Notes under the pieces: generated by a model | What the model saw: only the letters and a program-made list of their open reading frames with translations | What the model was told of the DNA's origin: nothing | Databases searched by the model: none | Made by a program: the position numbers and the translations under genes | Shown here: positions 914 to 57,621 of the stretch, piece after piece | Layout of the letters: the number at the start of each line of letters is the position of its first letter | Numbering within the stretch: position 1 is the first letter of the stretch | Assembly (NCBI GenBank): GCA_963932905.1 | Contig: CAWVRN010000016.1 | Location: 1-64,000, forward strand | Direction: 5' to 3' | DNA from: an uncultured Bdellovibrio sp. | Lineage (GTDB): Bacteria > Bdellovibrionota > Bdellovibrionia > Bdellovibrionales > Bdellovibrionaceae | DNA: 64,000 nt

Positions 914-1921
914 ATGTACAAATCAACAATCGGCACCCATCTAAACATTCTTGTTACTTTATTTCTGCTGATTTTTTCTTTCTCTGCGAAAGCGGAAAAA
1001 AATGGTTTTGCGAATTCTAATTTGATGTGCCTTTCGTGGTATCATTTCACGTCTATAAAACTCAGTGATTATACAAAACAAAGACTGTACGAAATTAGAA
1101 ATCTAAATAATCTAACTAGGTTAATAGGACGGAAAAATAAAAATCTAGGTAGCAATTCACCCAAGACAATTCAAGATCAAATTTTTTCAGAGGTCAGTCG
1201 GCAACTCACGGCAATTGTTCGGCAAATGTCTGATAAAAGACCTCAATCGAATCAGTTTGCCATCCAATCAATAAAAGAGCATATTAAAAACTCCCAATAT
1301 CTGCGAGCAAAAAAAGAAAACTTTCTAAATATTATGCCAATTGGAAAAAATAGCTTTTTAATATCTGATCTAAATAACTCAGCTCTTGAACAAAACAGAA
1401 TTCAAATTGTCACCTGGAACGAAGAATTTAAAAGATTTGTTAAAACATTTGAAAAAGCGTTAGATATTAATACTCCTTTTGACCGCGCAGTTCACACTAT
1501 TTCAGATAACCGCGTTGCTATCTTTGATTCATTAGAAGCTGAAGTGACTATTGTGACTGTTAACTCGTTTCAAGGGTCTGAAAGAAATTCTGCAATTGTT
1601 TCCACTCAATCTTTTTCAACCTATGTTGACACTGTGAATGATGATCCCTATTTTCCTATGTCTAGATATATAAAAAAAATTCACCATGGACACCCTGTCT
1701 TTCTTCCTCAATCTAATCAATTTGTGCTTCTTGGAATGTCAGACTTTTGGAAAGCCGACGAGGATATTTTTGAGGCACATTTAAATGGTCAAAAATTTAA
1801 AGTCATACTTGCGAATAAAAATGCTATTTATGAAATTTTTTATTTAATCACACCTAGTGATGAAGTTAAAATTGAAGAAGATCTAACTATCGTCAATACC
1901 CCTAAACAAAAAAGACAATGA
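914..1921 (+). CDS. Secreted hypothetical protein with signal peptide + CxxWY motif
   Basis: Likely start ATG 914; hydrophobic segment ending SAKA, then CLSWY. Confidence 0.65.
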   Translation: MYKSTIGTHLNILVTLFLLIFSFSAKAEKNGFANSNLMCLSWYHFTSIKLSDYTKQRLYEIRNLNNLTRLIGRKNKNLGSNSPKTIQDQIFSEVSRQLTAIVRQMSDKRPQSNQFAIQSIKEHIKNSQYLRAKKENFLNIMPIGKNSFLISDLNNSALEQNRIQIVTWNEEFKRFVKTFEKALDINTPFDRAVHTISDNRVAIFDSLEAEVTIVTVNSFQGSERNSAIVSTQSFSTYVDTVNDDPYFPMSRYIKKIHHGHPVFLPQSNQFVLLGMSDFWKADEDIFEAHLNGQKFKVILANKNAIYEIFYLITPSDEVKIEEDLTIVNTPKQKRQ

Positions 1922-2098
1922 TATTATAACGCATAGGATGTGTTTTTGATTTCAAAGTTTGAGAATGTTTTCTTTTTTGACATGTCAAAAAATGTTTCGT
2001 TAAATTTTGAGCTCAGCTAATAGGAGCTACTTGGTTAGGCTGTGTTTTTGCAATTTTGTACAAGTGATTTGGATTCAATGAGCAAGGTTTGAATTTGA

Positions 2099-3541
2099 TT
2101 GTCTTTGAATTGGGGATTTAATTTGAGAAAAATAGTTCATTTAATTGACGGCGTTTTGTTTCATTTCGAGAAAAAAAGAATCAGAAAATATATTGGACTT
2201 TCAATTGTTTCTTTGATTTTAATGTTTTTCTTTCAAAACTGTTCAAAAGCATTTGAGATTGAACAGGCAACAACGATAAATTCTGTAGAATCTAATCCTA
2301 CCTTGCCTGCTGATACTGATTCCTCAGATTCGACCTCCAGAACACCTGATGTGTCAAATCCAATTACCGTAGCAAGTGCTGACATCGAAATGGTGTTTCC
2401 TCCACCAAACGGCTCAACCACAGATAGTCATTTGATTGTTAGGGGTCAAACAAAACAAGGATTAGACATATCTCAAATAGAAGTAAATGGTATTTTGGCA
2501 ACCAGTTCAGATCAATTTAGAAACTGGCAAGTGGATGTGCCGTTATCGATGGGAACAAATATTTTGAGCGTCGAGGCCACTGTAGGCGGTCAGATAAAAA
2601 CAAATTTATCGATGTCATCAATTACACGAGTGACATCTGAAGCTGAATTACATCGCGGAGTAGGTTCTGAATGGGATATGCGGCCATTGGGTTTAGCTTA
2701 TGAACCAACTAAAAAACGTTTTATCATAGCTGTTGATGGTGAAGATGGAATTATGGGTGTTAACGCAAGTAATGGTGATAGAAGCTTTATTTCTGATAGT
2801 GAAGGGTCTCAGATCGGAACAGGTTATGAAATTGTTCAACCGACCTCAGGAGCCTCCTATGGTGAAAAGTCTTTTGTTATTGATAATAACTTAGTTGTAT
2901 TGATAGACAACACAACTGGTAATCGAAGTGTTTTTTCAACGGTATTGACCGAATCCAATACCCCAGCTTCACTGGCGTCAATAGTGATGACTGCCGATAC
3001 GAAAAATTTAATTGCATTATCTTATATGGTTGATTCTGTTCTTTACAAAATGGACACATCAACCGGATCAGTCAGCATCTTATCTTCGAAAACAAAAGGA
3101 AGTGGTATTGATCTTAGAAATGCGGGAACTATGGGTTACTCGAGTCAATTGCAGACAGCTTTTGTTTCTATACGTTACTCTGATGTTATTTTAGCGATAG
3201 ATACAGTGACAGGAAATCGACGCATCTTTTCTGAGGGAAAAAATGGTGAACCAAAGTTTCAAGATCCAAGTTATATTGTCGCAGATGATAAAAATGGCTT
3301 AGTCTATGTCTGGGATTCAGGCAAAATACATGCATTGGACATTAAGACGGGACGACGAAGAACAATTGTATCGTCTGGATCGTTTGCATCTTTTAATGAT
3401 ATTTACGGAATGACTTTAACTCCCTATGGTCCTGCCATTTTAGATTATATTCCAACATATGTTGTCGATCGACCTCAAAGAGGGAAAACCTTGATGTTGG
3501 TTGATCCACTAATTGGAACTAGAATAGTTATATCAAGATAG
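2099..3541 (+). CDS. Lipoprotein with Ig-like domain and beta-propeller repeats
   Basis: FFFQNC lipobox; VPLSMGTNILSVEA Ig-like strand; repeated D-x-x-TG-x-R blade motifs. Confidence 0.75.
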   Translation: MSLNWGFNLRKIVHLIDGVLFHFEKKRIRKYIGLSIVSLILMFFFQNCSKAFEIEQATTINSVESNPTLPADTDSSDSTSRTPDVSNPITVASADIEMVFPPPNGSTTDSHLIVRGQTKQGLDISQIEVNGILATSSDQFRNWQVDVPLSMGTNILSVEATVGGQIKTNLSMSSITRVTSEAELHRGVGSEWDMRPLGLAYEPTKKRFIIAVDGEDGIMGVNASNGDRSFISDSEGSQIGTGYEIVQPTSGASYGEKSFVIDNNLVVLIDNTTGNRSVFSTVLTESNTPASLASIVMTADTKNLIALSYMVDSVLYKMDTSTGSVSILSSKTKGSGIDLRNAGTMGYSSQLQTAFVSIRYSDVILAIDTVTGNRRIFSEGKNGEPKFQDPSYIVADDKNGLVYVWDSGKIHALDIKTGRRRTIVSSGSFASFNDIYGMTLTPYGPAILDYIPTYVVDRPQRGKTLMLVDPLIGTRIVISR

Positions 3542-3666
3542 ACATACAAAAACCGAGCGATATAGTTCCCTAAATGGTCGGTTTGTCCAATGTCCTTACA
3601 GATAGAAATGCGTTTTCAACCTCGGCGTCTACTGACAGTGGCTCAAGAATAGCACGTCTGTACTAG

Positions 3667-4461
3667 ATGTCCCAAATTGCATTTGCTTTTATTTTTACTT
3701 TATTAGCGCTCGTTTTCCCAAGCCATTCTTTGTGGGCCGCCACCGAAAAGACGTGCATCGGGTTTTACACGGTGGAGTTAGAGAGTGCCGCTAAAAAAAC
3801 ATTTGCCTCTTTGCCTAAGAAAAACTCTGATCGTTATAATGAATTAGTAAAAGATTTAAAACAACAGCTTAACACCACCGGCGCCTACGCAGTTCTAGAT
3901 TTACAATCGTTCGTCTCCAAAATCAGTGGGCGCGTATGGGCGAATTCTTTTCCTAAGGGTGTGGGCGCGCAGATATCATCAAGCGGACTTTTATTCATGA
4001 AAGATGGAGCCGTTTTTAGCGAAGAGCCGGCACCATGGCAAAAAGAAGAAATAGCAAGTCTACAGGCTTGGCTAAGAGAACTCATCCAAGATGCTGTGCC
4101 CAACGTACCTCTAAAAGAGGGATCTACAAACGTACGACATTCCACCGAAAATGCGTCTGGCCCGCACTTCGATGAATGGCATATCGACGGCGGCCATGCG
4201 TCCGTTACCTTATCTGTGGAAGGCGTGGGAACCGAAAAATTAGGGGTCGCTCCCTTAAACCTACCGATACAGCAATACTATCAAATCCGTGGAGACAAAT
4301 GGGAATCGTATTGCCCCGACTGCAAAGCGGTGGTTGTTCCTGCTGGCTACGCATTTATCTTTTTCGGAAGCCAATCAGGAGCCGCCGGGCAGTTTTCACC
4401 CACAATTCATAGGACACCTAAAAATGCCGGCTCAAGAACTTTGTTTGTTGTTCGGTTTTAA
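3667..4461 (+). CDS. Secreted protein (CxxFY motif) with 2OG-Fe(II)/DUF1826-like domain
   Basis: Signal peptide, TCIGFY, WHID...IHRTP...RTLF double-stranded beta-helix-like motifs. Confidence 0.6.
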   Translation: MSQIAFAFIFTLLALVFPSHSLWAATEKTCIGFYTVELESAAKKTFASLPKKNSDRYNELVKDLKQQLNTTGAYAVLDLQSFVSKISGRVWANSFPKGVGAQISSSGLLFMKDGAVFSEEPAPWQKEEIASLQAWLRELIQDAVPNVPLKEGSTNVRHSTENASGPHFDEWHIDGGHASVTLSVEGVGTEKLGVAPLNLPIQQYYQIRGDKWESYCPDCKAVVVPAGYAFIFFGSQSGAAGQFSPTIHRTPKNAGSRTLFVVRF

Positions 4462-4464
4462 TAT

Positions 4465-4722: not shown

Positions 4723-4765
4723 TTAAAAGCCAGGCAACGAAGATGGCATGACACCATCCATTGAC

Positions 4766-17081: not shown

Positions 17082-17405
17082 ATGGTAGCAATGCTTCAGC
17101 ACTACAAAATCCCAAAAGCTAAAAAACTAAGTGTTGATGAAGTGTATGCCAGAAAGAGATCCCGCTTTTACGGTGAATCTACGGAGAAGAAATTTTTCAC
17201 AGTAATTACTGATGTCGAAACAAGAAAAGTTATTTGGGTAAATGATGGCAGAAGCAAAGAGGCCTTAGATCAGTTTTATAGAATCATCGGTAAAGAGGCT
17301 TGCGCAAATATTGAAGTGTTCGCGATGGATCAATTTGATGGTTACCGAGCCAGTACTGAGGAGCACTGCCCTCAGGCGTCTGTGGTTTTAGATCGATTTC
17401 ATATT
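17082..17405 (+). pseudogene. ISL3 transposase internal fragment
   Basis: SVDE, TVITD, GRSKEAL, AMD, DRFHI motifs; lacks N- and C-terminal parts. Confidence 0.85.
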
Positions 17406-19919
17406 CGTCTTTTTCAAAATTTTCTCGGCGAGTTTTTTTTCGTCGGGCTCCGCAAGCTGTGCGAATTTTTTCAACTCTTTCACGAATGCAGGACTTAGTG
17501 ACTTCTGTTTTGTCGCCTCACGCCCAATGCGGTTAAGCACAGGGACATTTATCTGATTCGAGTGAAGTAGGCGGATGAGTTCTTCTTCGCTGAAGTCCAA
17601 ATCATCTTTTGACTTAGCCTTACCATCGTTTTCGAAAATTTTTTCGTAGAGCTCCTGCAGGGCGTAGCGATGAATCGGATCTTCGCCCGCGAGATTATCG
17701 AGTAGGCCAAACTCGGGCAGATCATTCGTATCGTTCGAGATGCCGGCGAATAGGCAGTGCTTTCGCAGCTCGGGCTCTGCCTTCAGGATCTCGCGACCAA
17801 AACTGAAATCTTCGGGCGAGAGATGAAATTCCTCATCCGTAGGATGCAGGTTTTGCGCTTTTCGGTACGCAGAGAATGCGGTGACTGATTCCTTTGCGAA
17901 GCTCGCGAGTAGCACAAGATGTTTCGGTCGGACTTGAAATTTTGCCGGGCCGTAAATGACGTAGTTTTCGCGAGCATAAAACCCAGTGCGACTCGTACCT
18001 TTTTGCCACGCCTTGAATTCTTTCGACGTCTTGATGTCTTGAAAATCAGCGAACGTGTCATCCTTGGCCAATACATTTTGAGCCAAAAGACACGCTTCGT
18101 CTATCCGTTTGAGCTTCAGAAGAAGTCGCACTTTGATGTCCAGCAAATAACGAAGGTCATCGTGTCGATAGACGTTTAAGACTTCGTCCGTCGCTTCGTC
18201 GATCATGCTGACGGCTGTGAGCAGATCATTTTGTTCAGACGAGGTTTCAAGAATTCGCCAGGCCATATTGCCGAGCGCTGATTCAAATCCTTTCACCATA
18301 GCATTTTTGGGCGCATAGGCCCATTCGGGTGAGGGATGCACCATCAGGTTTAGGATTGTTTTCGAGAGTTCTTGAATCTGTTCATCAAGCACCGCCGAGG
18401 GAGCTTGATTTTTCAAGGTTGCAAGAATCCAGAGGCGCCAATTGAGCGCATCGATGTTGCGAGGGTGGATCTGATTCACTTCGACCCACACAGGAAGCGA
18501 CTCCTGGTATTTCTGCTGACGAACCAAGTCGGCAGCTTTGGTCAAAAGCGTTTTGACATCTTCTTGAGTCTGTTTTTTTGCGCCGGTTTCTTTTTGCAGT
18601 TTTTTGGCGAGGTCAGATTTTCCACCTTTTTCAAAGGTCGCGGCCATGGCTCCTTGCAAGATGGGAATTTTACCGGATAGGGATTTTCGCTCGTTCGGCG
18701 TTAGCGATTCGATATACTCCAGTGCGGCTTCGGCCGCTTCGAGGCTGTGATCCAGAGCTTCGGCTTCCAGCATGCCTGAAATGACACGGTAAAAATGGAT
18801 GACCATAAGATCTGCTGACAGGTGATCTTGGAAATTCGTTAACAGGATATCTGAATCTTGGGCCGCTTCTGGCATGCGTCCCAGCTTGTAAAGGCAGTCC
18901 GATCTTTCGAGGTAAAGTTCATAGAAGGGGCTAGCTTCAAGGCCTTTTGTATAGAGCGCGCGAGCGTCTTCCCAACGTTCGTGGCCGAGTTCGAGCATCG
19001 CGCGATTGCGGCAGGCCATTGCGTAAATATGGTGATCACTATCTTCGTGGGTGCCTTCGCGGGTTGTGAAATGTTTCTCGTAGCGCGCCAGCGAAAGGTC
19101 GTAAAAATGCGCCGTCATTTTTTCCAAGCTGTCTCTTTCCGCCGAACCCTTCACCGTGGCGCGGAGCATATGTCCATGCACGACGCCAGCGTTGTAGAAG
19201 GCGCGTGCGCTGGGAAAGGTTTCATCGACGGCATCTTTGAAATTCTCTTTTTTAAAACCCTCTTTTTCGAAGCGGTGCTTGCGTGCAGACGCTTGAAAGA
19301 ATGGATCCCGAGTGCGTTTCACGTATTCATCCAAAGATTTAGCGGCGGCCAAGTGATCTGCTTTCGCCGCAGCCAGGGCCGAGAGCGCACGAAAATAAAA
19401 GACCGCAGTCGGATCTTTTTCGAAAGCGAGCTTTGCGAGGTTGAGACCCCATGTCGGGCCCGATCCTTCGACTGTGAATTTCCCTTTTACTTTTTTTACT
19501 AGGGCGGGCTTCAGAAGTTTTTCCCAGTCGAACATAGTTTTCGCCACGACTTCCATCAATTTTGGTTCGGACTCTGACCCGCCCCGCGAAACAATTAGGC
19601 CGATAACGTCATTCAGAAGTTCCGGTGAGTCTTCGTTGATGGATTGCAGCCAATGCTCTCCGGCTTCGCGTAGACGACCCATTTCGTTCGCTAAGACACC
19701 GGCTTGAAAGAGAAGGCCAAAATTGACCCCGCTAAATTGGGTTGCATTCTTCGTATGCAGATAGGCCGACTCAAGATCCTTAGACTCGTAATGAGCTTTC
19801 GCCAGACGTAAATGCGTTGCCATCAATTGTGGAAACAGTTCCGCCGATTTCTTCTGACTTGTTTCAAGATCTTTCAAGGCTGCAACAAGTTTACGAACTT
19901 CTGATGATCTATTCTGCAT
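17388..19919 (-). CDS. Large tetratricopeptide-repeat protein
   Basis: 843 aa with multiple TPR-like helical pairs; visibly more GC-rich than flanks. Confidence 0.8.
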   Translation of the reverse strand: MQNRSSEVRKLVAALKDLETSQKKSAELFPQLMATHLRLAKAHYESKDLESAYLHTKNATQFSGVNFGLLFQAGVLANEMGRLREAGEHWLQSINEDSPELLNDVIGLIVSRGGSESEPKLMEVVAKTMFDWEKLLKPALVKKVKGKFTVEGSGPTWGLNLAKLAFEKDPTAVFYFRALSALAAAKADHLAAAKSLDEYVKRTRDPFFQASARKHRFEKEGFKKENFKDAVDETFPSARAFYNAGVVHGHMLRATVKGSAERDSLEKMTAHFYDLSLARYEKHFTTREGTHEDSDHHIYAMACRNRAMLELGHERWEDARALYTKGLEASPFYELYLERSDCLYKLGRMPEAAQDSDILLTNFQDHLSADLMVIHFYRVISGMLEAEALDHSLEAAEAALEYIESLTPNERKSLSGKIPILQGAMAATFEKGGKSDLAKKLQKETGAKKQTQEDVKTLLTKAADLVRQQKYQESLPVWVEVNQIHPRNIDALNWRLWILATLKNQAPSAVLDEQIQELSKTILNLMVHPSPEWAYAPKNAMVKGFESALGNMAWRILETSSEQNDLLTAVSMIDEATDEVLNVYRHDDLRYLLDIKVRLLLKLKRIDEACLLAQNVLAKDDTFADFQDIKTSKEFKAWQKGTSRTGFYARENYVIYGPAKFQVRPKHLVLLASFAKESVTAFSAYRKAQNLHPTDEEFHLSPEDFSFGREILKAEPELRKHCLFAGISNDTNDLPEFGLLDNLAGEDPIHRYALQELYEKIFENDGKAKSKDDLDFSEEELIRLLHSNQINVPVLNRIGREATKQKSLSPAFVKELKKFAQLAEPDEKKLAEKILKKTNMKSI

Positions 19920-20270: not shown

Positions 20271-21446
20271 ATGCTATCTTGGGTACTTAAAGCCTTCATT
20301 TTGCTCACCCTTCCTCTTGCCAGTTTTGCCTCAGGTTCTGGTGGTGGTTCCAATAGCTGTTTTTATTTTTATCGACCCAAAATCTATACGGACAAAACAA
20401 CCTATGGCCTGCAGGCGTTTAAGCTGAATATCGATCGATTGAAAGTCCATTTTCAGAAGACCAAAAGCATGACGGACGACGAGAAAGTTAATCTCCTTCT
20501 CACTAGCGATGCTCGTGTCGTGTTTTTTCGCCTTCAAAGCCTAGCAAAAATTTACGAAAAAGCGTATGAACGCAAGTTCTTCACTAAACAAAGGGGCTTT
20601 TTTAAAAAATACGAAGACCTGATTGGTAGAGTAGATTTGTATCAAGGCCTTATTGGCGTTTCTACAAAACTAAAGCAGCCCCGCCTTATAAAATACTTTG
20701 AAAATAAAAAATCCGAAGCGGCCACTAATTTATTAAATGGCTTAATCGAAGCAAGACTGGCCCGCGATCCAAATGATCCAACGTCCAACGTTGACCCGGT
20801 CGACACATTGAATGAAGTCTACGAACATTTAGCTAAATTTGAGGATTGGAAGAGCGCTGAAAAAGACCTAGAAATGAATCTCAAGAATATAGTCAGCTAT
20901 GCACGCTCGTTACTTACAAAAATAAAAGCACGCGAATTTACTCAAGACGACATCGAGCTTGGATTGCATGATCTACGCCGCGGCTTGCGCTGGCCGTTGA
21001 TTCATATTCAGACTTTAAATCGTTTAACAGCATATGACGTTCGTTCTGATTTGCCTAAGGACGTACAAAGTTATTTTGAGTCTATGCAAGCGAGAAATCC
21101 CAAGATTTTAAAAAGTGGTTTCCTAAGTATGAAGGCTCCTGATATCAAACATCCTATGAGAGTCCCGCTATATCCGTATGCAATGCTAACTGATATAGTA
21201 GCTGAGATCGGCACAAAAAAAGACGGAGCTGAATCAGATATTTATATTACCCAAGCGATGCAAGAATTAGGCTTCGCCCAACGCACCCAAGCCAAAGTAC
21301 AAAAGGATCTTTTAAAAATGACAAATAGAACTGAGATTGTCGATCACAAATCATTAGCTGAGCAATACCAAGCAGATATAGACGCCTCTGGTTTACTAGA
21401 ATACTTCGCCAATCAGCTCGAGAAACTAAACGATATAGATAACTAA
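20271..21446 (+). CDS. Secreted protein (CxxFY motif) with CHAD-like domain
   Basis: Signal peptide, SCFYFY; KKYEDLIGRVD and LHDLRRGLRW resemble CHAD motifs. Confidence 0.6.
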   Translation: MLSWVLKAFILLTLPLASFASGSGGGSNSCFYFYRPKIYTDKTTYGLQAFKLNIDRLKVHFQKTKSMTDDEKVNLLLTSDARVVFFRLQSLAKIYEKAYERKFFTKQRGFFKKYEDLIGRVDLYQGLIGVSTKLKQPRLIKYFENKKSEAATNLLNGLIEARLARDPNDPTSNVDPVDTLNEVYEHLAKFEDWKSAEKDLEMNLKNIVSYARSLLTKIKAREFTQDDIELGLHDLRRGLRWPLIHIQTLNRLTAYDVRSDLPKDVQSYFESMQARNPKILKSGFLSMKAPDIKHPMRVPLYPYAMLTDIVAEIGTKKDGAESDIYITQAMQELGFAQRTQAKVQKDLLKMTNRTEIVDHKSLAEQYQADIDASGLLEYFANQLEKLNDIDN

Positions 21447-21528: not shown

Positions 21529-22458
21529 ATGTCGTTTTTAAAGCTTTTAATTGCTGTCTGTTTAGCGCTTCCTGCTTTTTCTCGTACTTTAGGTGTCGAG
21601 AGTGATTCAGGAACAAAAGGTCCCGCTTACTCGGAGCTAGTAAAATACTTTGCCAGTCTTCCTCAAAAATATCCTGAATTTGTTCAAGTCAGTCAATACG
21701 GCAAAACTCCAGGTGGTCGCCCACTGGTCGTGATTAAAGTTTCCTATCCAAAACGTTATGTAAATCCGGCTGTAGTTCGCTCACGTGAGCAAACGCCAGC
21801 AATTTTAATCACTGGCACTACTCACGGTGACGAATACCTAGGAATTGAAGACCGTTTACCAGAGTGGTTTGCTAAAGAAGGCGTTAAAGATCCAACTATT
21901 GCTCCCTATTTCCAAGCGGGTGGGGCGATTTACTTGATCCCCATTTTCAATCCCGATGGTTACGATACTCGCCGTCGCGAAAATTCACGCGGCCAAGATT
22001 TAAATCGTGATTTCTCGGTTCGCCAAGCAAATTTCGTTGGTTTTAAAGAAGTTGAAACTCAAGCGGCTCGAGATATGTTGATCAACCAATTGCAAGTTAA
22101 TCAACAGCGATTGTTGATCTCTATGGATTACCATTGCTGCATTGGCGCGGCTCTCTACCCATGGTCTTTTGCTAAAGCTCCAGAATTACCAGGTGACTAT
22201 TTGGCTCTTTACAAAGCCTACGGCAAAATTATGCAGAACAACTTTGGGGCTGATTTCCGTGTTGGAAAAACTCCGGATGTGTTAGGCTATTCCGCGATAG
22301 GTACTAGCAAAGACTACTACTATGAAAATTATGGTTCGATGAGCTTCACTTTCGAAGGTGAATATCGAACAGAGAAAAACAAATTCCCACAGCACGTTCA
22401 AATGTGGAAAAATTTGATCCAGTATGGTCAATTGACTCGCGGACTTTTACGTCGATAG
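21529..22458 (+). CDS. Secreted M14 zinc carboxypeptidase
   Basis: HGDE, NPDG, RREN, DLNRDF, DYH, FTFE. Confidence 0.9.
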   Translation: MSFLKLLIAVCLALPAFSRTLGVESDSGTKGPAYSELVKYFASLPQKYPEFVQVSQYGKTPGGRPLVVIKVSYPKRYVNPAVVRSREQTPAILITGTTHGDEYLGIEDRLPEWFAKEGVKDPTIAPYFQAGGAIYLIPIFNPDGYDTRRRENSRGQDLNRDFSVRQANFVGFKEVETQAARDMLINQLQVNQQRLLISMDYHCCIGAALYPWSFAKAPELPGDYLALYKAYGKIMQNNFGADFRVGKTPDVLGYSAIGTSKDYYYENYGSMSFTFEGEYRTEKNKFPQHVQMWKNLIQYGQLTRGLLRR

Positions 22459-22490
22459 TACTTGAATTTAGTTTGCAATCATACAAATTG

Positions 22491-22520
22491 AAAAAGGCTG
22501 CCTTAAAAGCAGCTTTTTTT
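22491..22520. terminator. Bidirectional intrinsic terminator
   Basis: AAAAGGCTGC...GCAGCTTTTTTT between convergent genes. Confidence 0.7.
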
Positions 22521-23049
22521 ACACCCTGATCGATTCATCAAATGGAATGCGAAGTCGCTTAGAAAGCTCTCGTCCCATCATACGCAGTGGATAGAAATCT
22601 TCATCTTCGCAAATACCGTCGTAAGTCACGTTCATATAGGCATCCCAAAATGGATAACTGTCTTTCACAAGGCTAACTTTAGAGCCATCAAAATTACCGG
22701 CGATGATACCATATGAAATCAATCCTGTTTTTCCTAGCCATAACTCTTTTGGAGTTTTTAAACTCTGACCGCGTTTTCTAAACAGGGTAATTTCGCCTGT
22801 GGATTCTAATTTAAGGTAAATTCCGCTTGGTTTCCAAATCTCGAAAGAGGCATTGTCCGTTGTCCACGCCCAAGTCCATGAATATGAAGATCCTTGATTA
22901 TCAAATTCGCCAACTCGAACACCTGGAGACAAAACCTCTAGATTATCATCCGAATCGGTCTGCAGGTAACTTGCTACAATTTTCAGCCCATCATCTGAAA
23001 CTTTTAATCGCAAAATTTTTGAAAGTGATTTAAAAAAATACTCTTTCAA
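22519..23049 (-). CDS. Hypothetical protein
   Basis: 176-aa ORF, TTG start. Confidence 0.55.
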   Translation of the reverse strand: MKEYFFKSLSKILRLKVSDDGLKIVASYLQTDSDDNLEVLSPGVRVGEFDNQGSSYSWTWAWTTDNASFEIWKPSGIYLKLESTGEITLFRKRGQSLKTPKELWLGKTGLISYGIIAGNFDGSKVSLVKDSYPFWDAYMNVTYDGICEDEDFYPLRMMGRELSKRLRIPFDESIRV

Positions 23050-23200
23050 CTAACAAGTCCCCATACATTCAATACTTTTGAAATGGACTTTATGATTTTT
23101 TTCATAATCCAAAGTCTAAACTTCCGTTACTTAAAAAACAAGAGTTCAAACTAGCAATGACTTTGCATTCAGTTTTGTATTTGGTTTTGTATTGAAACGA

Positions 23201-23238
23201 AAAAAAATCCCACAGCCTTTATACTGTGGGATTCAAAA
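23201..23238 (-). terminator. Intrinsic terminator
   Basis: AATCCCACAG/CTGTGGGATT stem with A-tract downstream of M14 gene. Confidence 0.7.
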
Positions 23239-23260
23239 ATTCTCATTCAGTTTCTGAAAA

Positions 23261-24721
23261 TTAAAAGGAAACTACTTGAGTTTGTGGCTGACCAGCCATT
23301 TGAACCTGGATTTGTTTCGCACGCCCGTCTGCTAACTTAATCTCTAATGTGTAAGTACCTGGATCTAACACTTTAAAGAAATTTCCAGCGGCATTTGTTT
23401 TCATCGGTTTCTCACCTTTGTTTTTAATAATGCCAGAAATAGAAATTGTCGCCTCCAAAGGCTGGAAACGCGCTGCTGACACAACTTTTAGGCTTAGCAT
23501 GTTTTGACTCATACGTTGGATAAAGTAGGACCACGCTTTTCTATGCTTAACTAATGTTGGTTCACGAACAGCATAGTCAGGTTGGAAACTTTGATTGACT
23601 TCGAATGTAAATGCCAAAGCCCCAAATTCGCCATGCATGAAACCCATGGAATCACCATCCACCGAATACAAAAGTTTCCAAGGGGTGCCTGCTGTGTAAG
23701 TACCTTTATTGCTGTCTGAAGGTAACATTTGAGCTAACTCGCCACCAATTTTTTGATGTAGTGCATTTTCGCCTGTAAAGGCACCTTGGCAACCATACGG
23801 GTACAAAACCAACTCACTGTAGGAATGATAACTTAGGGAAGCCGTTGGGTAAGTCATGTATCCTAATTTCATCAATGCTTGAGTTTCTGGTTCACTACCT
23901 GCAGAAGCACCACGATAAGTATCTGATGATGGACTGCCCGATGATCCGCTACATGCGTTCCATGCAAATGTATAGTTACGATTTAAATCCACACCGTGAA
24001 CGTTTGAACCATTCGCGCGTGCATTTTTTCTCCACCAGGTATCAGATGTCCATACGATATTATTTCCATCGACGTTCAACATTGGAACAATCCAAATATT
24101 CCAAGCATCTAGCAATTGATTCCACTGTGAGTTCGTACGTCTCACTGACAAAATTACATCGGCCACATCCATAACGATTTCTGAGGTCATGACCTCGCGG
24201 GCGTGGTGCATACCGTCGATAATCAACGTCGGTTTGTTGAAGTAAGACGAATCGTTTCGTTTCGCCGCTTTAGATAATAACAACGCATAGATGGGACGAC
24301 CTTGATTCGATTTTCCGATAGTTTCCAATCGAGTATGGTTGGGAAATTGAGCCGCGATCTTTTTAAGTTTCTCTTCTACTTTTTGTGGATTTAGATAACG
24401 AGGATCTAACTTATCCGATGATTCTAACCCTGGACGATGCGTGTTCTTCACCGTGAATGGAACACGATATTGAGTTAATCGATCAATACCCGCTTGGTCC
24501 GTGATTACTTCGATCTTTCCTTCTTGCCATTTAACGCCGGCAATATCGTAATCATTTTTTTTCAACCAAGCCATGTAGCTTTGTATCTGCTGAAAATTCA
24601 GAGGGCTTTGTACATAAACTTGATAGTGATTGGTTGAAAGCCTAGGTTGGACTTGAGCTTCCGTGGTGAACGCGACTGACAAGCATAATGCTATCCCAGC
24701 CAGCAAACCTTTCTTAAACAT
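23261..24721 (-). CDS. Secreted M14 carboxypeptidase T-like enzyme with C-terminal beta-sandwich
   Basis: HHARE, NVDG, WRKN, GVDLNRNY, SEPET, YHSYS, FTFE. Confidence 0.92.
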   Translation of the reverse strand: MFKKGLLAGIALCLSVAFTTEAQVQPRLSTNHYQVYVQSPLNFQQIQSYMAWLKKNDYDIAGVKWQEGKIEVITDQAGIDRLTQYRVPFTVKNTHRPGLESSDKLDPRYLNPQKVEEKLKKIAAQFPNHTRLETIGKSNQGRPIYALLLSKAAKRNDSSYFNKPTLIIDGMHHAREVMTSEIVMDVADVILSVRRTNSQWNQLLDAWNIWIVPMLNVDGNNIVWTSDTWWRKNARANGSNVHGVDLNRNYTFAWNACSGSSGSPSSDTYRGASAGSEPETQALMKLGYMTYPTASLSYHSYSELVLYPYGCQGAFTGENALHQKIGGELAQMLPSDSNKGTYTAGTPWKLLYSVDGDSMGFMHGEFGALAFTFEVNQSFQPDYAVREPTLVKHRKAWSYFIQRMSQNMLSLKVVSAARFQPLEATISISGIIKNKGEKPMKTNAAGNFFKVLDPGTYTLEIKLADGRAKQIQVQMAGQPQTQVVSF

Positions 24722-24947
24722 AAAACATCCTTTGTCTATTGATTGAAAGTGATATTATTCAATCGCAGCTTTTGACCAAGGTCTAGGGAAAATGTTTAGG
24801 GCTCTAAGGAATAGTTATAGATGACCGAAAGTTTTATAAGGAAAGTTTATCGAAACGATAAGGTCAGCGGAAGAAAGTCTGACTTCCTTCCGCTTAACTA
24901 AATGAATTCACAAAATCTGATGAGAAAAATTCAGTGATGGACTGACA

Positions 24948-25754
24948 TTAGAACTTACGAACTAGACCAACGACTATACCTTTAATGGTCACTTGCTCCG
25001 GATCGTAGAAGAATGACTTCAATTTACTGTTCGAGGGACGAAGTTCAATTTTTTGTTTTTCGTTAAGATTTGATTTGGATTTATAGTAGATTCTCTTAAC
25101 AGTCGCCTCGTTATCCACAGAAGCCACAATGATATCCCCATTCTTTGCATGACTCTGCTCTTGCACAAGGATGAAGTCGCTATCATTGATCCCTTCTTCG
25201 ATCATAGAATCACCTTCGACTTTAACAATAAATGTTGTCTCTGGTTGTTTCACCAATAATGGAATCACATCCAAAGTTTCGTTTTCCAATTGTCTTTCAA
25301 TGGGATTGCCGGCTGCTACGCGACCCAAATACGGGAATTCACCAACAGACGTTCTATTTGAAAAATGGGGAGAGGACAGAACTTCCTTTTGAGTTTTCAA
25401 ATTCGAAACCGTGGGCAACGGTTTCGACAAGTTCTGGAGGAGCTTGGTTTGTGAATCACTAGGAAATTCTGTCTTCTGCAAAATTTTATCTTTAAAAAAA
25501 TCTGATGTTTGCAAAATTTCGATACAGCGCTTTTGTCCAGGGAACAAGCGCAGGTAACTTTTGTTCTGCAATTGCTTTAAGTAATTCTGTACAGAATTAA
25601 ATGAAGCTAAGCCAAAGTGTTCTTTGATTTCTTGATAAGAAGGGCTGTGACCGTTTTCAAGAAAGTAAGCAGTTACAAAATCTAAAACACCCTTCTCTTT
25701 CGGAGAAAGGGGTTTTAGGTTTTGTGGGAGGGGTGGTGTGTGTGTCTTAGTCAT
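24948..25754 (-). CDS. lexA: SOS repressor LexA (with extended linker)
   Basis: PSYQEI winged HTH, GRVAAG cleavage site, VEGDSM, TVKR. Confidence 0.95.
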   Translation of the reverse strand: MTKTHTPPLPQNLKPLSPKEKGVLDFVTAYFLENGHSPSYQEIKEHFGLASFNSVQNYLKQLQNKSYLRLFPGQKRCIEILQTSDFFKDKILQKTEFPSDSQTKLLQNLSKPLPTVSNLKTQKEVLSSPHFSNRTSVGEFPYLGRVAAGNPIERQLENETLDVIPLLVKQPETTFIVKVEGDSMIEEGINDSDFILVQEQSHAKNGDIIVASVDNEATVKRIYYKSKSNLNEKQKIELRPSNSKLKSFFYDPEQVTIKGIVVGLVRKF

Positions 25755-25794
25755 ATTTACACTTAATTTACACTGTAGAGTCTGTGTAAGTCAA
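25755..25794 (-). promoter_or_regulatory. lexA promoter and putative autoregulatory LexA box
   Basis: TTGACT-18-TAAATT on minus strand; imperfect palindrome TTAC-ACT-GTAG and tandem ATTTACACT repeats. Confidence 0.65.
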
Positions 25795-25818
25795 CCCTCT
25801 GTATTCGTCTCTCTTTAA

Positions 25819-25843
25819 AAAACTAGCCACTGGTCGTGGCTAT
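25819..25843 (-). terminator. Intrinsic terminator after small lipoprotein gene
   Basis: TAGCCAC-N5-GTGGCTA stem with T-tract on minus strand. Confidence 0.65.
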
Positions 25844-25851
25844 TATAAAAC

Positions 25852-26016
25852 TTAGTTTTCCGTTTTAAATTCATTAGTTAGAGCAGCCTTAGCCGCAGGT
25901 TTATCTTGTGACGCAAGCCATTCGGACGATGGTCGAGAGCAATTTTGAAAGGAAACAATAAGAAACGGATTCACAACTACAAACAACGTAAACAAACGTA
26001 CTGATTTGCCTAACAT
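25852..26016 (-). CDS. Small lipoprotein, 54 aa (not in ORF track)
   Basis: AAGGAGG RBS; MLGKSVRLFTLFVVVNPFLIVSFQNCSRPSS...KTEN*; FQNC lipobox; own terminator. Confidence 0.75.
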   Translation of the reverse strand: MLGKSVRLFTLFVVVNPFLIVSFQNCSRPSSEWLASQDKPAAKAALTNEFKTEN

Positions 26017-46321: not shown

Positions 46322-48142
46322 CTATTCTCGTAATTTGACGCTAGAATATTCCGGGCGAAGAAATAGTCTTATTAGGTCATCAGTCGAATACTTCATTACC
46401 CACAAAGAAGTCTTTCCTTCTGGGAGGTTCAGATGTTGAGGAGCATATACAATACTAGCACCTCGTCGGCGATAAAAATTCATCCCGGCGCGATTACAAT
46501 CGAAATATAAATCACCCTTTATGTTAGCCATTTTTAAATACTCAGCCACGCCCGCCATTACAGTTAAAAAAGATTCGCTCTCAGCCAAATGGCTTGCGAA
46601 CAATCGACCAAGTTCCATCGTTTTCTCTCCGTTCGAAGATCGGGGCAAATGGATATGAGGGAATTCTCTTTCGATATACGTTTTATCATAAGTACCATCA
46701 AAAATCCGAATTAGAGCTAACAAGCGATGCTGCTCGTTTGGCTTAGTAAAAGATAAATATGTTGTTAAATTCAGTGGCGCTTTAAGTTCAATTTGCTCAT
46801 CATGAGCAATTTCACTTTCGGTGAAACTTCCGTTCTTCCTTAGCGTATCGAAGTATGTTTTAACATAAGCCACTAGCTGAGGATCATGTTCCACATTATG
46901 TTCTCGGCGCCCGTCAAGCCAACGCGATGATACTACGTTTCCTTGCAGCCTTCTCAACATTGGGTTCCAGGCCAGCATCGTCTGATCATAATCGCTATAT
47001 CCACCAGGCAGATCTGGGTAAATTCGCGGTGAGAAAATATGTAAATCATTTTGGTAATTCGCAGGAGCCGGTTGAATCGATCGGGCTTTATCAACATCAC
47101 CACGCGCTTCCAAAAATTGAAAATAGAATTCCGACACATCTCCGTACTTTTTTGTTTTTAACTGTTCTAGTCTGGTTAGAATTTCAAGTAAGTATTTTTT
47201 GGCAGCAATATCATGAGAATTTTGAAACAGAAAATCGGTCATGTAATGCATAGACGGGTATGGCAGAGCCATTTCGTAAACTCGCCAGTCCGTTAGTTGC
47301 AGCCATTTTGGAACAGATTCATGTGGCCAGTATTTACTAGCAACGCCAAATTTTCTAAGTAAATCAAAATATTTATTCATTATATACAAATCTAATTTAG
47401 AATTGGAATTAGCAAACGCCTCTAACGCAAACTCGGTTTGCTTAGAACGAAGTGCTTTACTAGCCGCTCCTTGATCAATCCATTTTTTTATTTTGAATTT
47501 AAACTCAGCATACAAATCATCATAAGCTTTATTACCGATGGCATCAGAATACTTTTTCGTAATGTCCCCAGTGGTTGATAATTCTTTTATTGCCCACGTA
47601 TGGTTAGCTTGCTGCAAGACTTGCTTTAACGTCGCTATGTTTCCTAAATCAACAGCCGTTTGCAGAACATGCTCTAAGTATTTCAGATCTTGATCTTTTG
47701 AAACCGATACAATCAAGGGACCATTTAGGAAATAGCCTTCGATGATATGCCAGTCCCAATGACGCTCTTGAAAGAAGTTACTTTTCGGACGTTCACCCAT
47801 CAGCAGGTCAACATAAAATCCTGGGGTTCGTACTTCATAATAGCCAGTCGTTGATTCAAAAATTTTTAAGTAGACATCGAAATACTTCAGATCAGAATCA
47901 GTACCGTATTTTTTTAGTTTTTGAAAAAGTCTTTTCGCAGATTTGGCATCACTTGCCTCTTTGGGCTGTGCCCACTCCGACCCGAAATATTTATTCAAAC
48001 GAGCCTCTAAATTTTTTACCTGCTGATTACGGACAACCGATACCATTGGCTTATAGAATTGATGGCAGTCATCCTTAGCCAATGCCCAGCACTGGGTGAA
48101 AAGTATTATTAAAAATAACCAGTGGCAGACGAGCTTTTCCAT
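46322..48142 (-). CDS. Secreted protein (CxxFY motif) with C-terminal GNAT/LuxI-like fold
   Basis: ATG 48142, signal, DDCHQFY; C-terminal ALIRI, MELGRL, FYRRRG. Confidence 0.6.
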   Translation of the reverse strand: MEKLVCHWLFLIILFTQCWALAKDDCHQFYKPMVSVVRNQQVKNLEARLNKYFGSEWAQPKEASDAKSAKRLFQKLKKYGTDSDLKYFDVYLKIFESTTGYYEVRTPGFYVDLLMGERPKSNFFQERHWDWHIIEGYFLNGPLIVSVSKDQDLKYLEHVLQTAVDLGNIATLKQVLQQANHTWAIKELSTTGDITKKYSDAIGNKAYDDLYAEFKFKIKKWIDQGAASKALRSKQTEFALEAFANSNSKLDLYIMNKYFDLLRKFGVASKYWPHESVPKWLQLTDWRVYEMALPYPSMHYMTDFLFQNSHDIAAKKYLLEILTRLEQLKTKKYGDVSEFYFQFLEARGDVDKARSIQPAPANYQNDLHIFSPRIYPDLPGGYSDYDQTMLAWNPMLRRLQGNVVSSRWLDGRREHNVEHDPQLVAYVKTYFDTLRKNGSFTESEIAHDEQIELKAPLNLTTYLSFTKPNEQHRLLALIRIFDGTYDKTYIEREFPHIHLPRSSNGEKTMELGRLFASHLAESESFLTVMAGVAEYLKMANIKGDLYFDCNRAGMNFYRRRGASIVYAPQHLNLPEGKTSLWVMKYSTDDLIRLFLRPEYSSVKLRE

Positions 48143-48337
48143 CAATAGGATAAAATGCAACCACAATACCCATCCTACTAAGATCACGAAGGTTTAGTAT
48201 GTTTTTAGGAACTATTTACCCCAAGCCGGAAGGCACCTGTCTAATATTTTGACAGTTAGAAATTAGGGCAACTACCGTTTTGAAATACATTACCTCGGAT
48301 GACTTTGCTTATGTTGGTTCTTTATATGTTTCAATGC

Positions 48338-48940: not shown

Positions 48941-49660
48941 TTATGTTTCCAATTTCGATTTAAAACTAAAAACTTTATGAGTGTCTTTAACTGGCAATAC
49001 AATCCAGATCCGATAAATACCTGGATCTGAAATACCGTGCGGAATTCTGATTTTTATTTTCTTTGTATCTTTATCCAACACTGTCTCTGAATGGAAAATC
49101 CGCGAACCAAAATTATTCGAGACCACTGAATACATAGTATTATCGAATGCATCGGACGAGTTGTTTACCATGTAAGAAAACTGAAAACTAGCCACCCCTT
49201 CTTTAAAGTCGCTTTTCACGAGTTCAATTTTTAAATTCCCATTTTCGTATAGTTTCATTTCCTTTTCAGGATCGGGATTTCTAACTTCCGCAGCACCCTT
49301 AAATTTATAGGACATGAAAATATCGTTATCAAAATGCCCCTCGGCCCAAAGCCAATTCCATCCGGGAAGAATGTCATCAAACGTACCTTTCCAATCATTT
49401 TTTGCAGCTGTCAATGTCGCTATTTTGATTTCACTCCCAAACGAATTAAATAAGAAAACCTTTTTGATTGTACTCTTTTCTGCCGGTGTTATCGATTTAT
49501 CTAAAAACGTATTTTTAACTGCAAATTCAAACTCATACTTACCAGACTTCGCCTTATCTATTTTGAAATTATGTAAGCGCAGACTTGGATCAGAAATATT
49601 ATGGGCCCTAGCCGACGAACCAAAGATGACACACAAAAGAAAAAGATATCTAATTGCCAT
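48941..49660 (-). CDS. Secreted hypothetical protein
   Basis: Signal peptide ARA/H; PGIYRIW Ig-like strand. Confidence 0.6.
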   Translation of the reverse strand: MAIRYLFLLCVIFGSSARAHNISDPSLRLHNFKIDKAKSGKYEFEFAVKNTFLDKSITPAEKSTIKKVFLFNSFGSEIKIATLTAAKNDWKGTFDDILPGWNWLWAEGHFDNDIFMSYKFKGAAEVRNPDPEKEMKLYENGNLKIELVKSDFKEGVASFQFSYMVNNSSDAFDNTMYSVVSNNFGSRIFHSETVLDKDTKKIKIRIPHGISDPGIYRIWIVLPVKDTHKVFSFKSKLET

Positions 49661-50072
49661 ACTTGTTTATCAACCTATTCACTTCGTCGGCCAAATCGCC
49701 GAAGAAATCGCCTTTACGCAAATTAACTTGATCCGACTTTTTAAGCTGATTTTGATTCAATTGTTTTAGCGCATTACTGATTTTCAAAACAGGTCCTACA
49801 ATTTGATTCGATTGAAGCACTAGAACTATAAAAACCCCTAAGGACGTAAGAACATAGATAATAAAAAAACTAATATTAAAATAGATACCTAGTGTCGCGG
49901 CAAATTCCTTATGGGCTTCGTTATGCGAATAGTCTTCAACTAAATCAAAAAGTATGTTCCTACCGATCAGGTACAATGCGATCAACCCCATCGAATTCAT
50001 AAGAAGTCCAAGAAGGATAATACGCAGCTGCGATTTAACAGAAACAATCATTATTTTTCGCTTGAATTCCAT
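49650..50072 (-). CDS. Two-TM protein with HAMP-like tail
   Basis: SNQIVGPV...LRKGDFFGDLADEVN. Confidence 0.7.
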   Translation of the reverse strand: MEFKRKIMIVSVKSQLRIILLGLLMNSMGLIALYLIGRNILFDLVEDYSHNEAHKEFAATLGIYFNISFFIIYVLTSLGVFIVLVLQSNQIVGPVLKISNALKQLNQNQLKKSDQVNLRKGDFFGDLADEVNRLINKYGN

Positions 50073-56187: not shown

Positions 56188-56256
56188 GCACTTATCCGAG
56201 TTCTAAGCGTCTCGCTTTCCCGTTTTGCAAGTAGCTGTTTTGATTGAAGAAAAACT

Positions 56257-56361
56257 TGGCGGAGAGGGAGAATTCACTTTATCAAGTTTTTAACTCGTTG
56301 AAAGTCTTCAGCATTTCTTACCCGCATAACTAAATAACTAATCTGTAGTAAGTTGTAGCGA
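56257..56361. other. att-like half-site: tRNA 3'-end remnant, IHF site and arm repeats
   Basis: Reverse complement GAATTCTCCCTCTCCGCCA (tRNA-Ser-like end); TATCAAGTTTTTA matches WATCAANNNNTTR; TGTAGTAA and TGTAGCGA. Confidence 0.6.
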
Positions 56362-56922
56362 GAAACTGTTTATTGGGGTGATGGCAAAGTCTGCGCGCCT
56401 GTTTCATAGCTATTGCTGAATGTTGTAAGCGCACTGATAACGACATACTCAGTCGGGTTGTCGTCCCTGGAGTTTGGACAACGCAAGTTGTTGAATACAT
56501 CGAAAAATTTGAAACTGCGATCTGGTCAATAAAGCTACGGCGTCCCCAGCAAGTCCCACGGTAAATCCCTAGAATGTCCCCTGTGTTTCCCCGCGATTTC
56601 TGAGGCTCGGGCGGCACCCTTCCTGACCGCTAGGTCACAACTCTGTTTTTCGCCTCATTTAAGGGGACCACCTATTTTCTAAAGGTCACTGTAGGGCTGC
56701 GCTCATTGCAAGGGGCGGCGTCTTCAACGCTGTATTAAAAGGTTTATGGTTTTCTGAAGGGCTGGATGAAAAATAGCATTGGCTTGTTGAGCATTGTGTT
56801 TCAACTTGTGTCGTCAAATATTTAAACGGCTTCTGCTAATTTTTGTCTAACGGTGGAGATATTCTATTGTGGAGGCCGTTAGTTTAATTTGGGCGGGTAT
56901 TTAAACTGCACTAAAATTTCTT

Positions 56923-57621
56923 ATGAAGCGGCTTACTATTGAATTTTTATTTGTTTTTCTTTGGGCAGTAACAGGAGCCGCTATTGAAGGTAATGTCTGC
57001 AGGAAATTCTATGAAAATTCAAATAAAGTAACGGAAACTAATGGATTCAAGATATTTACCTCGAGATTTGAACTTCGTCCCTTAGATAAAGATGATTTTG
57101 CGGCTGCGACTAAATTAATATTTGACCCTTCCGTCGGTGATATGAGCGGGGATTTTCAAATATATAAAAAATTTAATATAGGTCGTCTAAACTACGCTAA
57201 ATATATGGCTCGAATTGAGTTTTATGCGAGAAGTAGACTAACTTTTCAAGGTCTTAAACAAAAAAGCACTGGAAAAAATATAAATTTATCTTTTGGAATT
57301 TTTGAGAAGGGCAAACTTATAGGAATGTGTGGTCTTTTTAGTGGTGCACAGGGCGCTTCTACGCTCGAAATTGAAAATAAAAAAATATTTTCAATTTCAT
57401 ATCATTTATTTCCTCACGTTTGGGGAAAAGGCATCGCATCTGAGGTTGGTTTAAGGCTAATTGATTATGCTTTTAGAAATATGGATGCTGATTTAGTACA
57501 TGGTCAGGCGTTAAAATCGAACATTGGGTCAAATAGAGTTCTTGAAAAGATTGGTTTGGTACCATTTTCCCAAAATGACCCACTTTACAACCATTTTATC
57601 ATAGAGCGACCTTTTCAGTAG
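56923..57621 (+). CDS. Secreted (CxxFY) RimJ/RimL-type GNAT acetyltransferase
   Basis: Signal, NVCRKFY; TSRFELRP, WGKGIASE, NIGSNRVLEKIG. Confidence 0.8.
   Translation: MKRLTIEFLFVFLWAVTGAAIEGNVCRKFYENSNKVTETNGFKIFTSRFELRPLDKDDFAAATKLIFDPSVGDMSGDFQIYKKFNIGRLNYAKYMARIEFYARSRLTFQGLKQKSTGKNINLSFGIFEKGKLIGMCGLFSGAQGASTLEIENKKIFSISYHLFPHVWGKGIASEVGLRLIDYAFRNMDADLVHGQALKSNIGSNRVLEKIGLVPFSQNDPLYNHFIIERPFQ

Follow-up and report, generated by a model that had tools for sequence, protein, structure and literature searches.

A cysteine-containing pentapeptide behind predicted signal peptides marks dozens of unrelated proteins of an uncultured Bdellovibrio and looks like an undescribed sorting or attachment label

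In a stretch of 64,000 nucleotides from an uncultured Bdellovibrio sp. (GenBank assembly GCA_963932905.1, contig CAWVRN010000016.1, C16:1-64000; hereafter, the window), five genes encode proteins that share a signal-peptide-like N terminus followed by a pentapeptide of the form cysteine-x-x-(phenylalanine or tryptophan)-tyrosine (C-x-x-[FW]-Y; hereafter, the tag). Followed through the whole genome and its relatives, the tag proved to be genuinely concentrated behind signal-peptide-like N termini, with overwhelming statistical support; it is conserved, and it seems not to have been described before. The tag looks like an address or attachment label, and it heads dozens of otherwise unrelated proteins, in which its cysteine is commonly the only one.

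RESULTS

The pentapeptide is enriched behind signal-peptide-like N termini

The genome comprises 4.55 Mb in 58 contigs (40.7% G+C), for which a simple codon-usage caller gave 4,257 gene models covering 91% of the sequence. Signal-peptide-like N termini were called by a crude rule of our own that was deliberately lax, as seen from the 2,173 of 4,257 models that it marks. The pattern C-x-x-[FW]-Y occurs 85 times in the proteome, and 31 of these occurrences are placed 6 to 21 residues behind a hydrophobic window. For C-x-x-F-Y, 30 of 82 occurrences fell within a 31-residue zone behind the hydrophobic window and 52 elsewhere; this zone holds 4.86% of the residues, and the excess has a binomial P of 7e-19. 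Compared with the same pattern beginning with any residue other than cysteine, the odds ratio for lying in the zone was 13 (Fisher test). The controls stayed near expectation, with 3.6 to 5.6% of occurrences in the zone when serine, alanine, threonine or glycine stood in the place of cysteine, 106 of 2,534 for all noncysteine residues taken together, 1 of 35 for the reversed motif (Y-F-x-x-C), and 3 to 6% for C-x-x-F-F and C-x-x-F-L. Shifted spacings, in very small counts, gave 3 of 22 (C-x-F-Y) and 0 of 24 (C-x-x-x-F-Y). When the zone was shuffled 500 times, C-x-x-F-Y appeared 1.74 times on average and at most 6 times, against the 30 observed, and the excess over chance on which the original prediction of a shared tag depends is therefore present.

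The position three residues after the cysteine (+3) also tolerates V, I, Y and W. The tagged set comprises 33 core members and 14 V, I or Y variants, 47 proteins altogether, including two members that the signal-peptide rule had missed and that were added. A further variant, CINTY, is found on a protein whose homologue in genome G016 has CDDVF, and since such extra variants exist the set is not closed at either edge. Its true size is at least 33 and probably about 40 to 47 proteins.

Five tagged genes lie in the window

The original prediction had placed five pentapeptides in the window, each behind a Sec-type signal with its cysteine outside a lipobox. Translation confirms every one of them, in the following genes.

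914 to 1921, plus strand: P0001 gene; the reading frame is open from 794, with a signal-peptide-like start at 914
1028 to 1042, plus strand: P0001 tag, CLSWY, about 12 residues beyond an A-K-A site and preceded by LLIFSFSAKAEKNGFANSNLM
3667 to 4461, plus strand: P0002 gene; tag CIGFY at 3754-3768, preceded by SHSLWAATEKT
20271 to 21446, plus strand: P0003 gene; tag CFYFY at 20358-20372, preceded by ASFASGSGGGSNS
46322 to 48187, minus strand: P0004 gene; translation probably starts at the Met at 48142
48053 to 48067, minus strand: P0004 tag, CHQFY, preceded by QCWALAKDD
56923 to 57621, plus strand: P0005 gene; tag CRKFY at 56998-57012, preceded by VTGAAIEGNV

All five N termini run from a basic n-region through a short hydrophobic core and a small-x-small site to the tag, which in P0003 sits after a Gly/Ser linker. 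The domains that had been proposed for the five proteins mostly hold as leads. The RimJ/L-type GNAT acetyltransferase of P0005 was recovered by Pfam. P0003 has a confident all-alpha AlphaFold model (pLDDT 94) whose six best matches in the PDB are CHAD domains without exception (E values of 0.019 to 0.14; TM scores of 0.40 to 0.58), which makes a CHAD-like fold a lead for this protein. The assignments of P0002 (DUF1826/2OG-Fe(II)-oxygenase-like) and of the C-terminal ~240 residues of P0004 (GNAT/FeeM/LuxI-like), both from the Atlas, are leads only, and P0001 is an orphan, matching no known family and having no homologue among 40 relatives. Five tagged genes in one 64-kb window exceed expectation (P=5e-4); the largest contig (571 kb) carries none and the second largest carries one.

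Anatomy of the tagged N termini

The common layout is a predicted Sec-type signal peptide, a signal-peptidase-I-like site, 2 to 6 residues (rarely up to 14), the tag, with F preferred over V at position +3, and then the enzyme domain. In an alignment anchored on the cysteine, alanine is enriched at positions -7 to -4, resembling a signal peptidase I site; Asn or Ser stands at -2, Ser at -1, Leu, Arg or Ile at +1, and Phe (32 proteins) or Val (10 proteins) at +3, while the Tyr at +4 in 47 of 47 follows from the definition of the set. No conserved positions were seen past +5. With cleavage predicted by a crude -3/-1 rule, the cysteine would be residue 3 to 7 of the mature protein in 37 of 47. 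Measured by a heuristic of our own in place of a trained predictor, the median hydrophobic core is 11 residues long and 44 of 47 cores do not exceed 15, a length like that of signal peptides and not of membrane anchors.

As had been proposed, the cysteine is not that of a lipoprotein signal: a relaxed lipobox pattern at -3 to +1 matched 0 of the 47 tagged proteins, compared with 121 canonical lipobox candidates elsewhere in the genome. The stretch after the tag is not distinctive (polar fraction of 0.556 versus 0.531 in other exported proteins), and the tagged signal peptides are mutually only 10 to 31% identical.

The tag heads unrelated proteins, including enzymes with cytoplasmic co-substrates

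The mature parts of the 47 tagged proteins fall into 43 BLAST clusters, so the tag is modular in the sense of the original prediction, which had further noted that some of the cargo would need cytoplasmic co-substrates; the Pfam and NCBIfam matches bear this out. Toxin- or effector-type domains above the Pfam cutoffs are ADPrib_exo_Tox (66 bits), RelA_SpoT (40 bits) and PLDc_2 (45 bits, in a cardiolipin-synthase-like protein). Also above the cutoffs are two GNATs, acyltransferases, UDPGP, PPDK_N (an ATP-grasp domain of the PEP-synthase type), a DAO flavoenzyme of the GlpO/GlpD type and a deformylase, together with hydrolases: two S41 and two S9 peptidases, a papain-like C1 peptidase and an alpha/beta hydrolase. 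One tagged protein resembles the OlsF bifunctional aminolipid synthase (252 bits, below the cutoff of its model), and L001, a tagged DnaG/Toprim-like protein, is likewise a subthreshold match. No Pfam match at E≤0.001 was found for 24 of the 45 tagged proteins scanned, and no NCBIfam model covers the tag in these 45.

Untagged, housekeeping-like paralogues of the GlpD-, OlsF-, S9- and S41-like cargo are encoded elsewhere in the genome, so the tagged versions are extra, divergent copies. Beside the ADP-ribosyltransferase, PLD, deformylase, UDPGP and PPDK_N genes, no small partner that could confer immunity is evident; the tagged RelA/SpoT gene is preceded by an open reading frame of 124 residues.

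The tag cysteine is kept apart from other cysteines

The tag cysteine is the sole cysteine in 25 of the 47 mature tagged proteins. An odd number of cysteines was counted in 34 of 47, compared with 575 of 2,128 other signal-peptide-like proteins (odds ratio of 7, P=2e-10), and additional cysteines are mostly arranged as close pairs. Apart from the tag cysteine, the tagged proteins contain 38 cysteines in 18,958 residues (0.20%), whereas the share is 0.88% in other exported proteins and 1.09% in the 121 canonical lipoproteins (P=3e-33); proteins that lack a signal peptide have 0.97%. In the 33 core members, nontag cysteines are even scarcer (0.14%). This depletion points to selection guarding one thiol from mispairing, and in these statistics the cysteine looks like an unpaired, reserved thiol. 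Odd counts are found in 88% of the canonical lipoproteins and 72% of the tagged proteins. DsbA-family proteins are present in the genome, and since even cysteine counts are also favored in the other exported proteins, the periplasm appears to form disulfides.

Orthologues retain the cysteine and the tyrosine

Of the 9 other genus genomes, 8 have an orthologue of P0003; at 35 to 76% identity, all of these keep the cysteine and the tyrosine at +4 (CFYFY, CLRFY in three, CGDFY in two, CLASY and CLSNY) while spacers and linkers diverge. In two other genera of the family, P0003 relatives have CKQIV and CEAVF, and in two other families they have a signal peptide without the cysteine. Database homologues of P0003 kept the tag in 10 of 10. 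A search of 1.84 billion proteins was made for the P0003 family. Of the 150 best representatives, 73 begin with a signal-peptide-like N terminus and 77 do not; 42 of the 73 have C-x-x-hydrophobic-hydrophobic behind it, mostly ending in V-F or L-F. Ten remote representatives, mostly without a signal peptide, gave 2 weak, subthreshold CHAD matches when compared with Pfam.

P0004 has orthologues in 2 of the 9 genomes, and both are tagged (CEGVY and CHSFY). The single genus homologue of P0005, in G006, keeps a signal peptide and CKKFY despite a 200-residue insertion; GNAT relatives of P0005 in other genera are frames of 169 to 197 residues that match only query residues 123 to 213. P0001 and P0002 have no homologue in the nine genomes, and the sole homologue of P0002 among the 40 relatives, from another genus, has a signal peptide and CEDVF. 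The ADP-ribosyltransferase cargo has two homologues, both with CKSFY, and the orthologue of the tagged protein L006 in the closest named relative (a metagenome-assembled genome named "Bdellovibrionaceae bacterium") is 89% identical and keeps CREFY. The retention of the cysteine that a functional tag would imply is thus seen in relatives of P0003, P0004 and the ADP-ribosyltransferase, down to 35% identity.

The F-Y form is expanded in one genus

Next, a tag profile (A1) of 30 columns was built from 45 tags of this genome; by construction, it finds 42 sites of its own genome at E<0.05, P0001 scoring 24.7 bits. With E≤0.01, A1 matched 9 of 9 genus genomes (1 to 18 matches each) and had no match in the 15 other genera of the family; of 16 genomes belonging to other families, one gave a single marginal match, in a 47-residue frame. 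Because the profile was trained on this genome, such counts in relatives are lower bounds that favor close kin. Relaxing the threshold to E≤1 gave 46 matches in G006, compared with 2 to 5, mostly in short frames, in four other genera. Across 300 genomes of the phylum (E≤0.003), several matches (five) occurred only in the one same-genus genome of the sample. Six other genomes had one match each: CRGVY, CREVY, CEGWY, CRDFY, one in a 48-residue frame and one that was not recovered at its locus. Three loci of other, distant families of the phylum (L083, L084 and L085, in G245, G180 and G292), each met as a single match, are open frames of ~143 to 150 residues with a signal peptide, C-x-x-[V/W]-Y and several more cysteines; either they match by chance or they form a small family of their own.

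Proteins with C-x-x-V-F were observed in other genera, four in G016 and one (CESVF) in G017. In an unbiased 800-kb sample of G017 (733 gene models), C-x-x-hydrophobic-aromatic fell 3 times of 140 in a zone holding 4.1% of residues, so no expansion was seen there. A second profile, A2, made from variant tags, gave 1 to 7 matches in other genera but recovered 0 of the 47 tags of this genome; it has little power and was not relied on. The flavor of the tag therefore drifts, with F-Y in close kin, x-Y in G004 and G007, and V-F in other genera. On this distribution, the cysteine handle predates the genus. Particular to this genus are the F-Y form and the growth of the tagged set to dozens of proteins.

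Candidate partners, secretion genes and regulators

Three protein families were followed as possible partners of the tag. Lgt is present in two copies order-wide and does not track tag abundance; its paralogues here (PF01790) lie at G000:C5:26426-27385 and G000:C27:5300-5998, and nearly all genomes of the order, in the 40 relatives searched, have two Lgt proteins of ~360 and ~260 residues. CPBP/Rce1-like proteases, considered as a sorting enzyme, were found in only 5 of the 9 genus genomes and not in the tag-bearing G002, G005, G008 and G009, the last two of which have 12 and 10 tag matches. DsbA-family proteins number 2 to 5 per genus genome versus 1 to 6 elsewhere, which does not match the distribution of the tag.

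A type II secretion system (T2SS) cluster of GspC, GspD (with its N0 domain) and GspE is encoded at C14:44.5-49.6 kb. At this locus (G000:C14:43684-49610, L093), the gspC-gspD-gspE genes are convergent to the tagged gene L018, which encodes 218 residues with CKLFY and belongs to no known family. The sheath gene TssC of type VI secretion systems (T6SS) was not found in this genome. The only recurrent neighbors of the tagged genes are histidine kinases, DUF4423 regulators (three times) and two giant AAA-M41 proteins of ~1200 to 1290 residues (G000:C30:13797-17669 and G000:C35:1562-5200), each of which lies near a tagged gene and combines several AAA+ modules with an M41 (FtsH-type) peptidase. 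Two putative regulatory features lie beside tagged genes of the window.

48238 to 48254, no strand: 17-nucleotide palindrome TGTCTAATATTTTGACA, just upstream of P0004
55369 to 56187, plus strand: DUF4423 helix-turn-helix regulator gene, upstream of P0005

The palindrome, as TGTC[AT]A[AT][AT]-N3-9-[AT]GACA, has 16 sites in the genome, two of them at tagged genes. Thirteen sites have a gene start within 300 nucleotides, and 10 of these precede signal-peptide-like genes, including the two tagged ones; the palindrome may be an operator for a regulator of exported proteins. AGTGACC stands within 200 nucleotides upstream of 6 of 47 tagged genes versus 26 of all 4,257 (hypergeometric P=2.5e-7, uncorrected for ~16,000 7-mers). 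A common regulon through either AGTGACC or the palindrome was rejected, both being too sparse. The DUF4423 protein may act as a regulator locally, and it is uncertain whether it belongs to the tag system; its paralogues lie at G000:C3:184346-185149 and G000:C51:7198-8001, and the three genes stand beside tagged P0005, L004 and L040.

Other features of the window

Beside P0003, three M14 zinc-carboxypeptidase genes with a LexA-like repressor gene among them occupy positions 21529-27049, and an ISL3 transposase fragment lies at 17082-17498. The gene directly upstream of P0004 (48338-48928, minus strand) is type IV pilin-like and encodes an N-terminal methylation motif; two small uncharacterized genes (48941-50072) share its orientation. 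A tyrosine integrase, a MobA/VirD2-type relaxase and a NikA/MobC-like protein at 58158-63941 mark the edge of a mobile element.

DISCUSSION

The motif, its position, enrichment and modularity, the cysteine statistics, the conservation in orthologues and the restriction to one lineage are established. We tentatively read the pentapeptide as a modular N-terminal sorting or hand-over tag that would use a reserved thiol, and we give this reading a probability of about 0.45. Cleavage, recognition, thiol chemistry, route and target we infer as follows. Sec export and removal of the signal peptide would expose an N-terminal thiol beside two bulky hydrophobic residues. A putative periplasmic or outer-membrane factor would recognize the tag, probably engaging the thiol covalently, for instance as a mixed disulfide, and would hand the cargo out of the cell, in whose genome a T2SS is present. 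The cargo, consisting of divergent copies of normally cytoplasmic enzymes and of hydrolases, would then act on another cell, most plausibly prey. The sorting reading is favored because the motif has the form of a short linear signal next to a predicted cleavage site, is carried by unrelated cargo and varies between lineages as receptor-ligand pairs do, and because much of the cargo needs co-substrates found only in the cytoplasm. The purge of other cysteines, moreover, is what would be expected if the thiol does covalent chemistry in an oxidizing periplasm.

Several points weigh against this reading. No receptor, carrier or sorting enzyme was found among the neighbors of the tagged genes or through the distributions of DsbA, Lgt and the CPBP proteases, and an all-versus-all BLAST of the three genes on either side of all 47 tagged genes found no machinery. 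Signal-peptide cleavage and export are predictions of our crude rule, and the predatory habit of this uncultured genus is an assumption made from its family, the Bdellovibrionaceae. Given that shuffling yields 6.6 matches to the broad pattern, about 5 of the 14 V, I or Y variants may have arisen by chance, and the profile counts carry the bias toward close kin described above. In the P0003 family, the motif could be partly structural, since the N-terminal cysteine is old and family-wide and the tag forms a short helix, of moderate confidence, in the AlphaFold model. Finally, missing adjacent immunity genes would be expected if export protects the producer, yet they add no support.

Instead of being handed on, the cysteine could be lipidated or otherwise tethered, holding the enzymes on the cell's own outer membrane, surface or vesicles. 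A covalent anchor of this kind would fit the lipoprotein-like parity of the cysteine counts, the two bulky hydrophobic residues behind the cysteine and the presence of two Lgt paralogues, and sorting tags with an invariant cysteine and predicted lipidation are described in the available text of PMC11980579. However, the lipobox is missing from all 47 proteins, and a polar spacer of 2 to 14 residues and a signal-peptidase-I-like site come before the cysteine; the second Lgt is found throughout the order and the CPBP proteases in only some genus genomes; true lipoproteins are not depleted of cysteine; and the residues behind the tag show no more of a linker's character than those of other exported proteins. 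We therefore consider such an anchor unlikely, though a serious candidate. A tether of another sort, in which an uncleaved N terminus keeps the enzymes at work at the producer's inner membrane with the cysteine motif at the membrane interface, is suggested by the OlsF-like, cardiolipin-synthase/PLD-like and GlpD-like cargo, membrane-lipid enzymes that are normally cytoplasmic or peripheral. The hydrophobic cores look too short to span a membrane, the alanines at -7 to -4 resemble those of a signal peptidase I site, and the basic n-region predicts an outward-facing C terminus, so that we give this idea hardly any credence.

The same cysteine evidence can be read without any sorting. A reversible disulfide, to a second copy of the protein or to an inhibitor, might silence dangerous enzymes in the producer's periplasm, in keeping with an unpaired cysteine, the purge of other cysteines, toxin-like cargo without adjacent immunity genes and a periplasm in which DsbA-family proteins and the even counts elsewhere indicate disulfide formation. 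Yet one would hardly expect five residues on a flexible spacer to inhibit 43 different folds, cargo that is harmless is tagged too (the CHAD-like protein, and peptidases with untagged paralogues), and the conserved aromatic pair points to a common recognition partner, which makes such a latch quite improbable in our view. It is more improbable again that the motif has no shared function and is a lineage habit of the cleavage region, a stabilizing N-terminal cap or the relic of a spreading 5' gene segment. Its shortness, its confinement to one lineage, its drifting flavor and the lack of machinery would suit that explanation, but the cysteine and tyrosine are kept at 35% identity while their flanks change, the dissimilar signal peptides give no appearance of a common cassette, and the purge of cysteines across 47 unrelated proteins points to selection on the thiol.

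Compared with known systems, the tag resembles the class of MYXO-CTERM, PEP-CTERM, GlyGly-CTERM and LPXTG in being a short signature on dozens of unrelated exported proteins of one lineage and in lying beside a hydrophobic helix and a basic cluster, and it shares an invariant cysteine with MYXO-CTERM. In Myxococcus, according to the available text of the source, the invariant cysteine of MYXO-CTERM marks dozens of proteins for predicted lipidation and surface display via the T2SS (PMC11980579). However, the CTERM motifs are C-terminal and precede a transmembrane helix and a basic tail, whereas the order here is the N-terminal mirror image (basic, hydrophobic, motif); and CTERM tags are cut by a dedicated, co-occurring membrane protease, whereas no enzyme co-distributed with the tag was found among the CPBP/Rce1-like, Lgt and DsbA families profiled.

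Bacterial lipoprotein signals are recognized by a lipobox and processed by Lgt, LspA and Lnt. The tagged proteins share with lipoproteins a signal peptide, one reserved cysteine near the mature N terminus and odd cysteine counts, but they differ in the absent lipobox, in a cysteine placed 2 to 14 polar residues past the core and in having four- to fivefold fewer other cysteines. Failing the C-terminal position, the co-distributed protease and the lipobox, the tag resembles both CTERM and lipoprotein systems and is a member of neither. The N-terminal segment of the curli protein CsgA and the lipoprotein export signal of Bacteroidota are short mature-N-terminal segments that direct passage across, or placement on, the outer membrane after Sec, and the tag is like them in following a Sec signal peptide. 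Those segments are not known to carry an invariant cysteine and serve one family or lipoproteins only, whereas the tag heads 43 clusters. For T2SS substrates, no linear secretion signal is known. A species-variable set of divergent cytoplasmic enzyme folds behind a common label also recalls the effector repertoires of T6SS, contact-dependent inhibition and Legionella-type systems; the tagged set differs from these contact-dependent repertoires in its Sec-first route, in the TssC gene not being found and in having no evident immunity genes beside its toxin-like cargo. No description of the tag was found in NCBIfam or in the literature on Bdellovibrio secretion, N-terminal cysteines, sorting signals and CxxFY, a search mostly confined to journals outside subscription, and the word "cysteine" is absent from the available text of the Bdellovibrio secretion-toolbox paper (PMC12622784).

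The sorting reading can be carried further, to a step that we think distinctly unlikely: the tag may be the loading handle of a prey-injection route, in which at least 40 cytoplasm-type enzymes would hang by mixed disulfides from their N-terminal cysteine on a common carrier or translocon and be released by reduction in the prey cytoplasm, as AB toxins are. If true, it would account for the access of Sec-exported, NAD-, ATP- or acyl-CoA-dependent enzymes to their substrates and for the purge of all other cysteines from the cargo.

A short, transplantable label would make it testable how Bdellovibrio-like predators send enzymes past their own outer membrane and into prey. The tag would also allow candidate effectors of uncultured predators to be listed by a rule of sequence, and here it flags about 25 family-less proteins as probable secreted effectors. 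The lineage-specific sorting tags described so far are C-terminal or of the lipobox type, and their class would gain a new architecture from an N-terminal, single-thiol tag placed after a signal peptidase I site.

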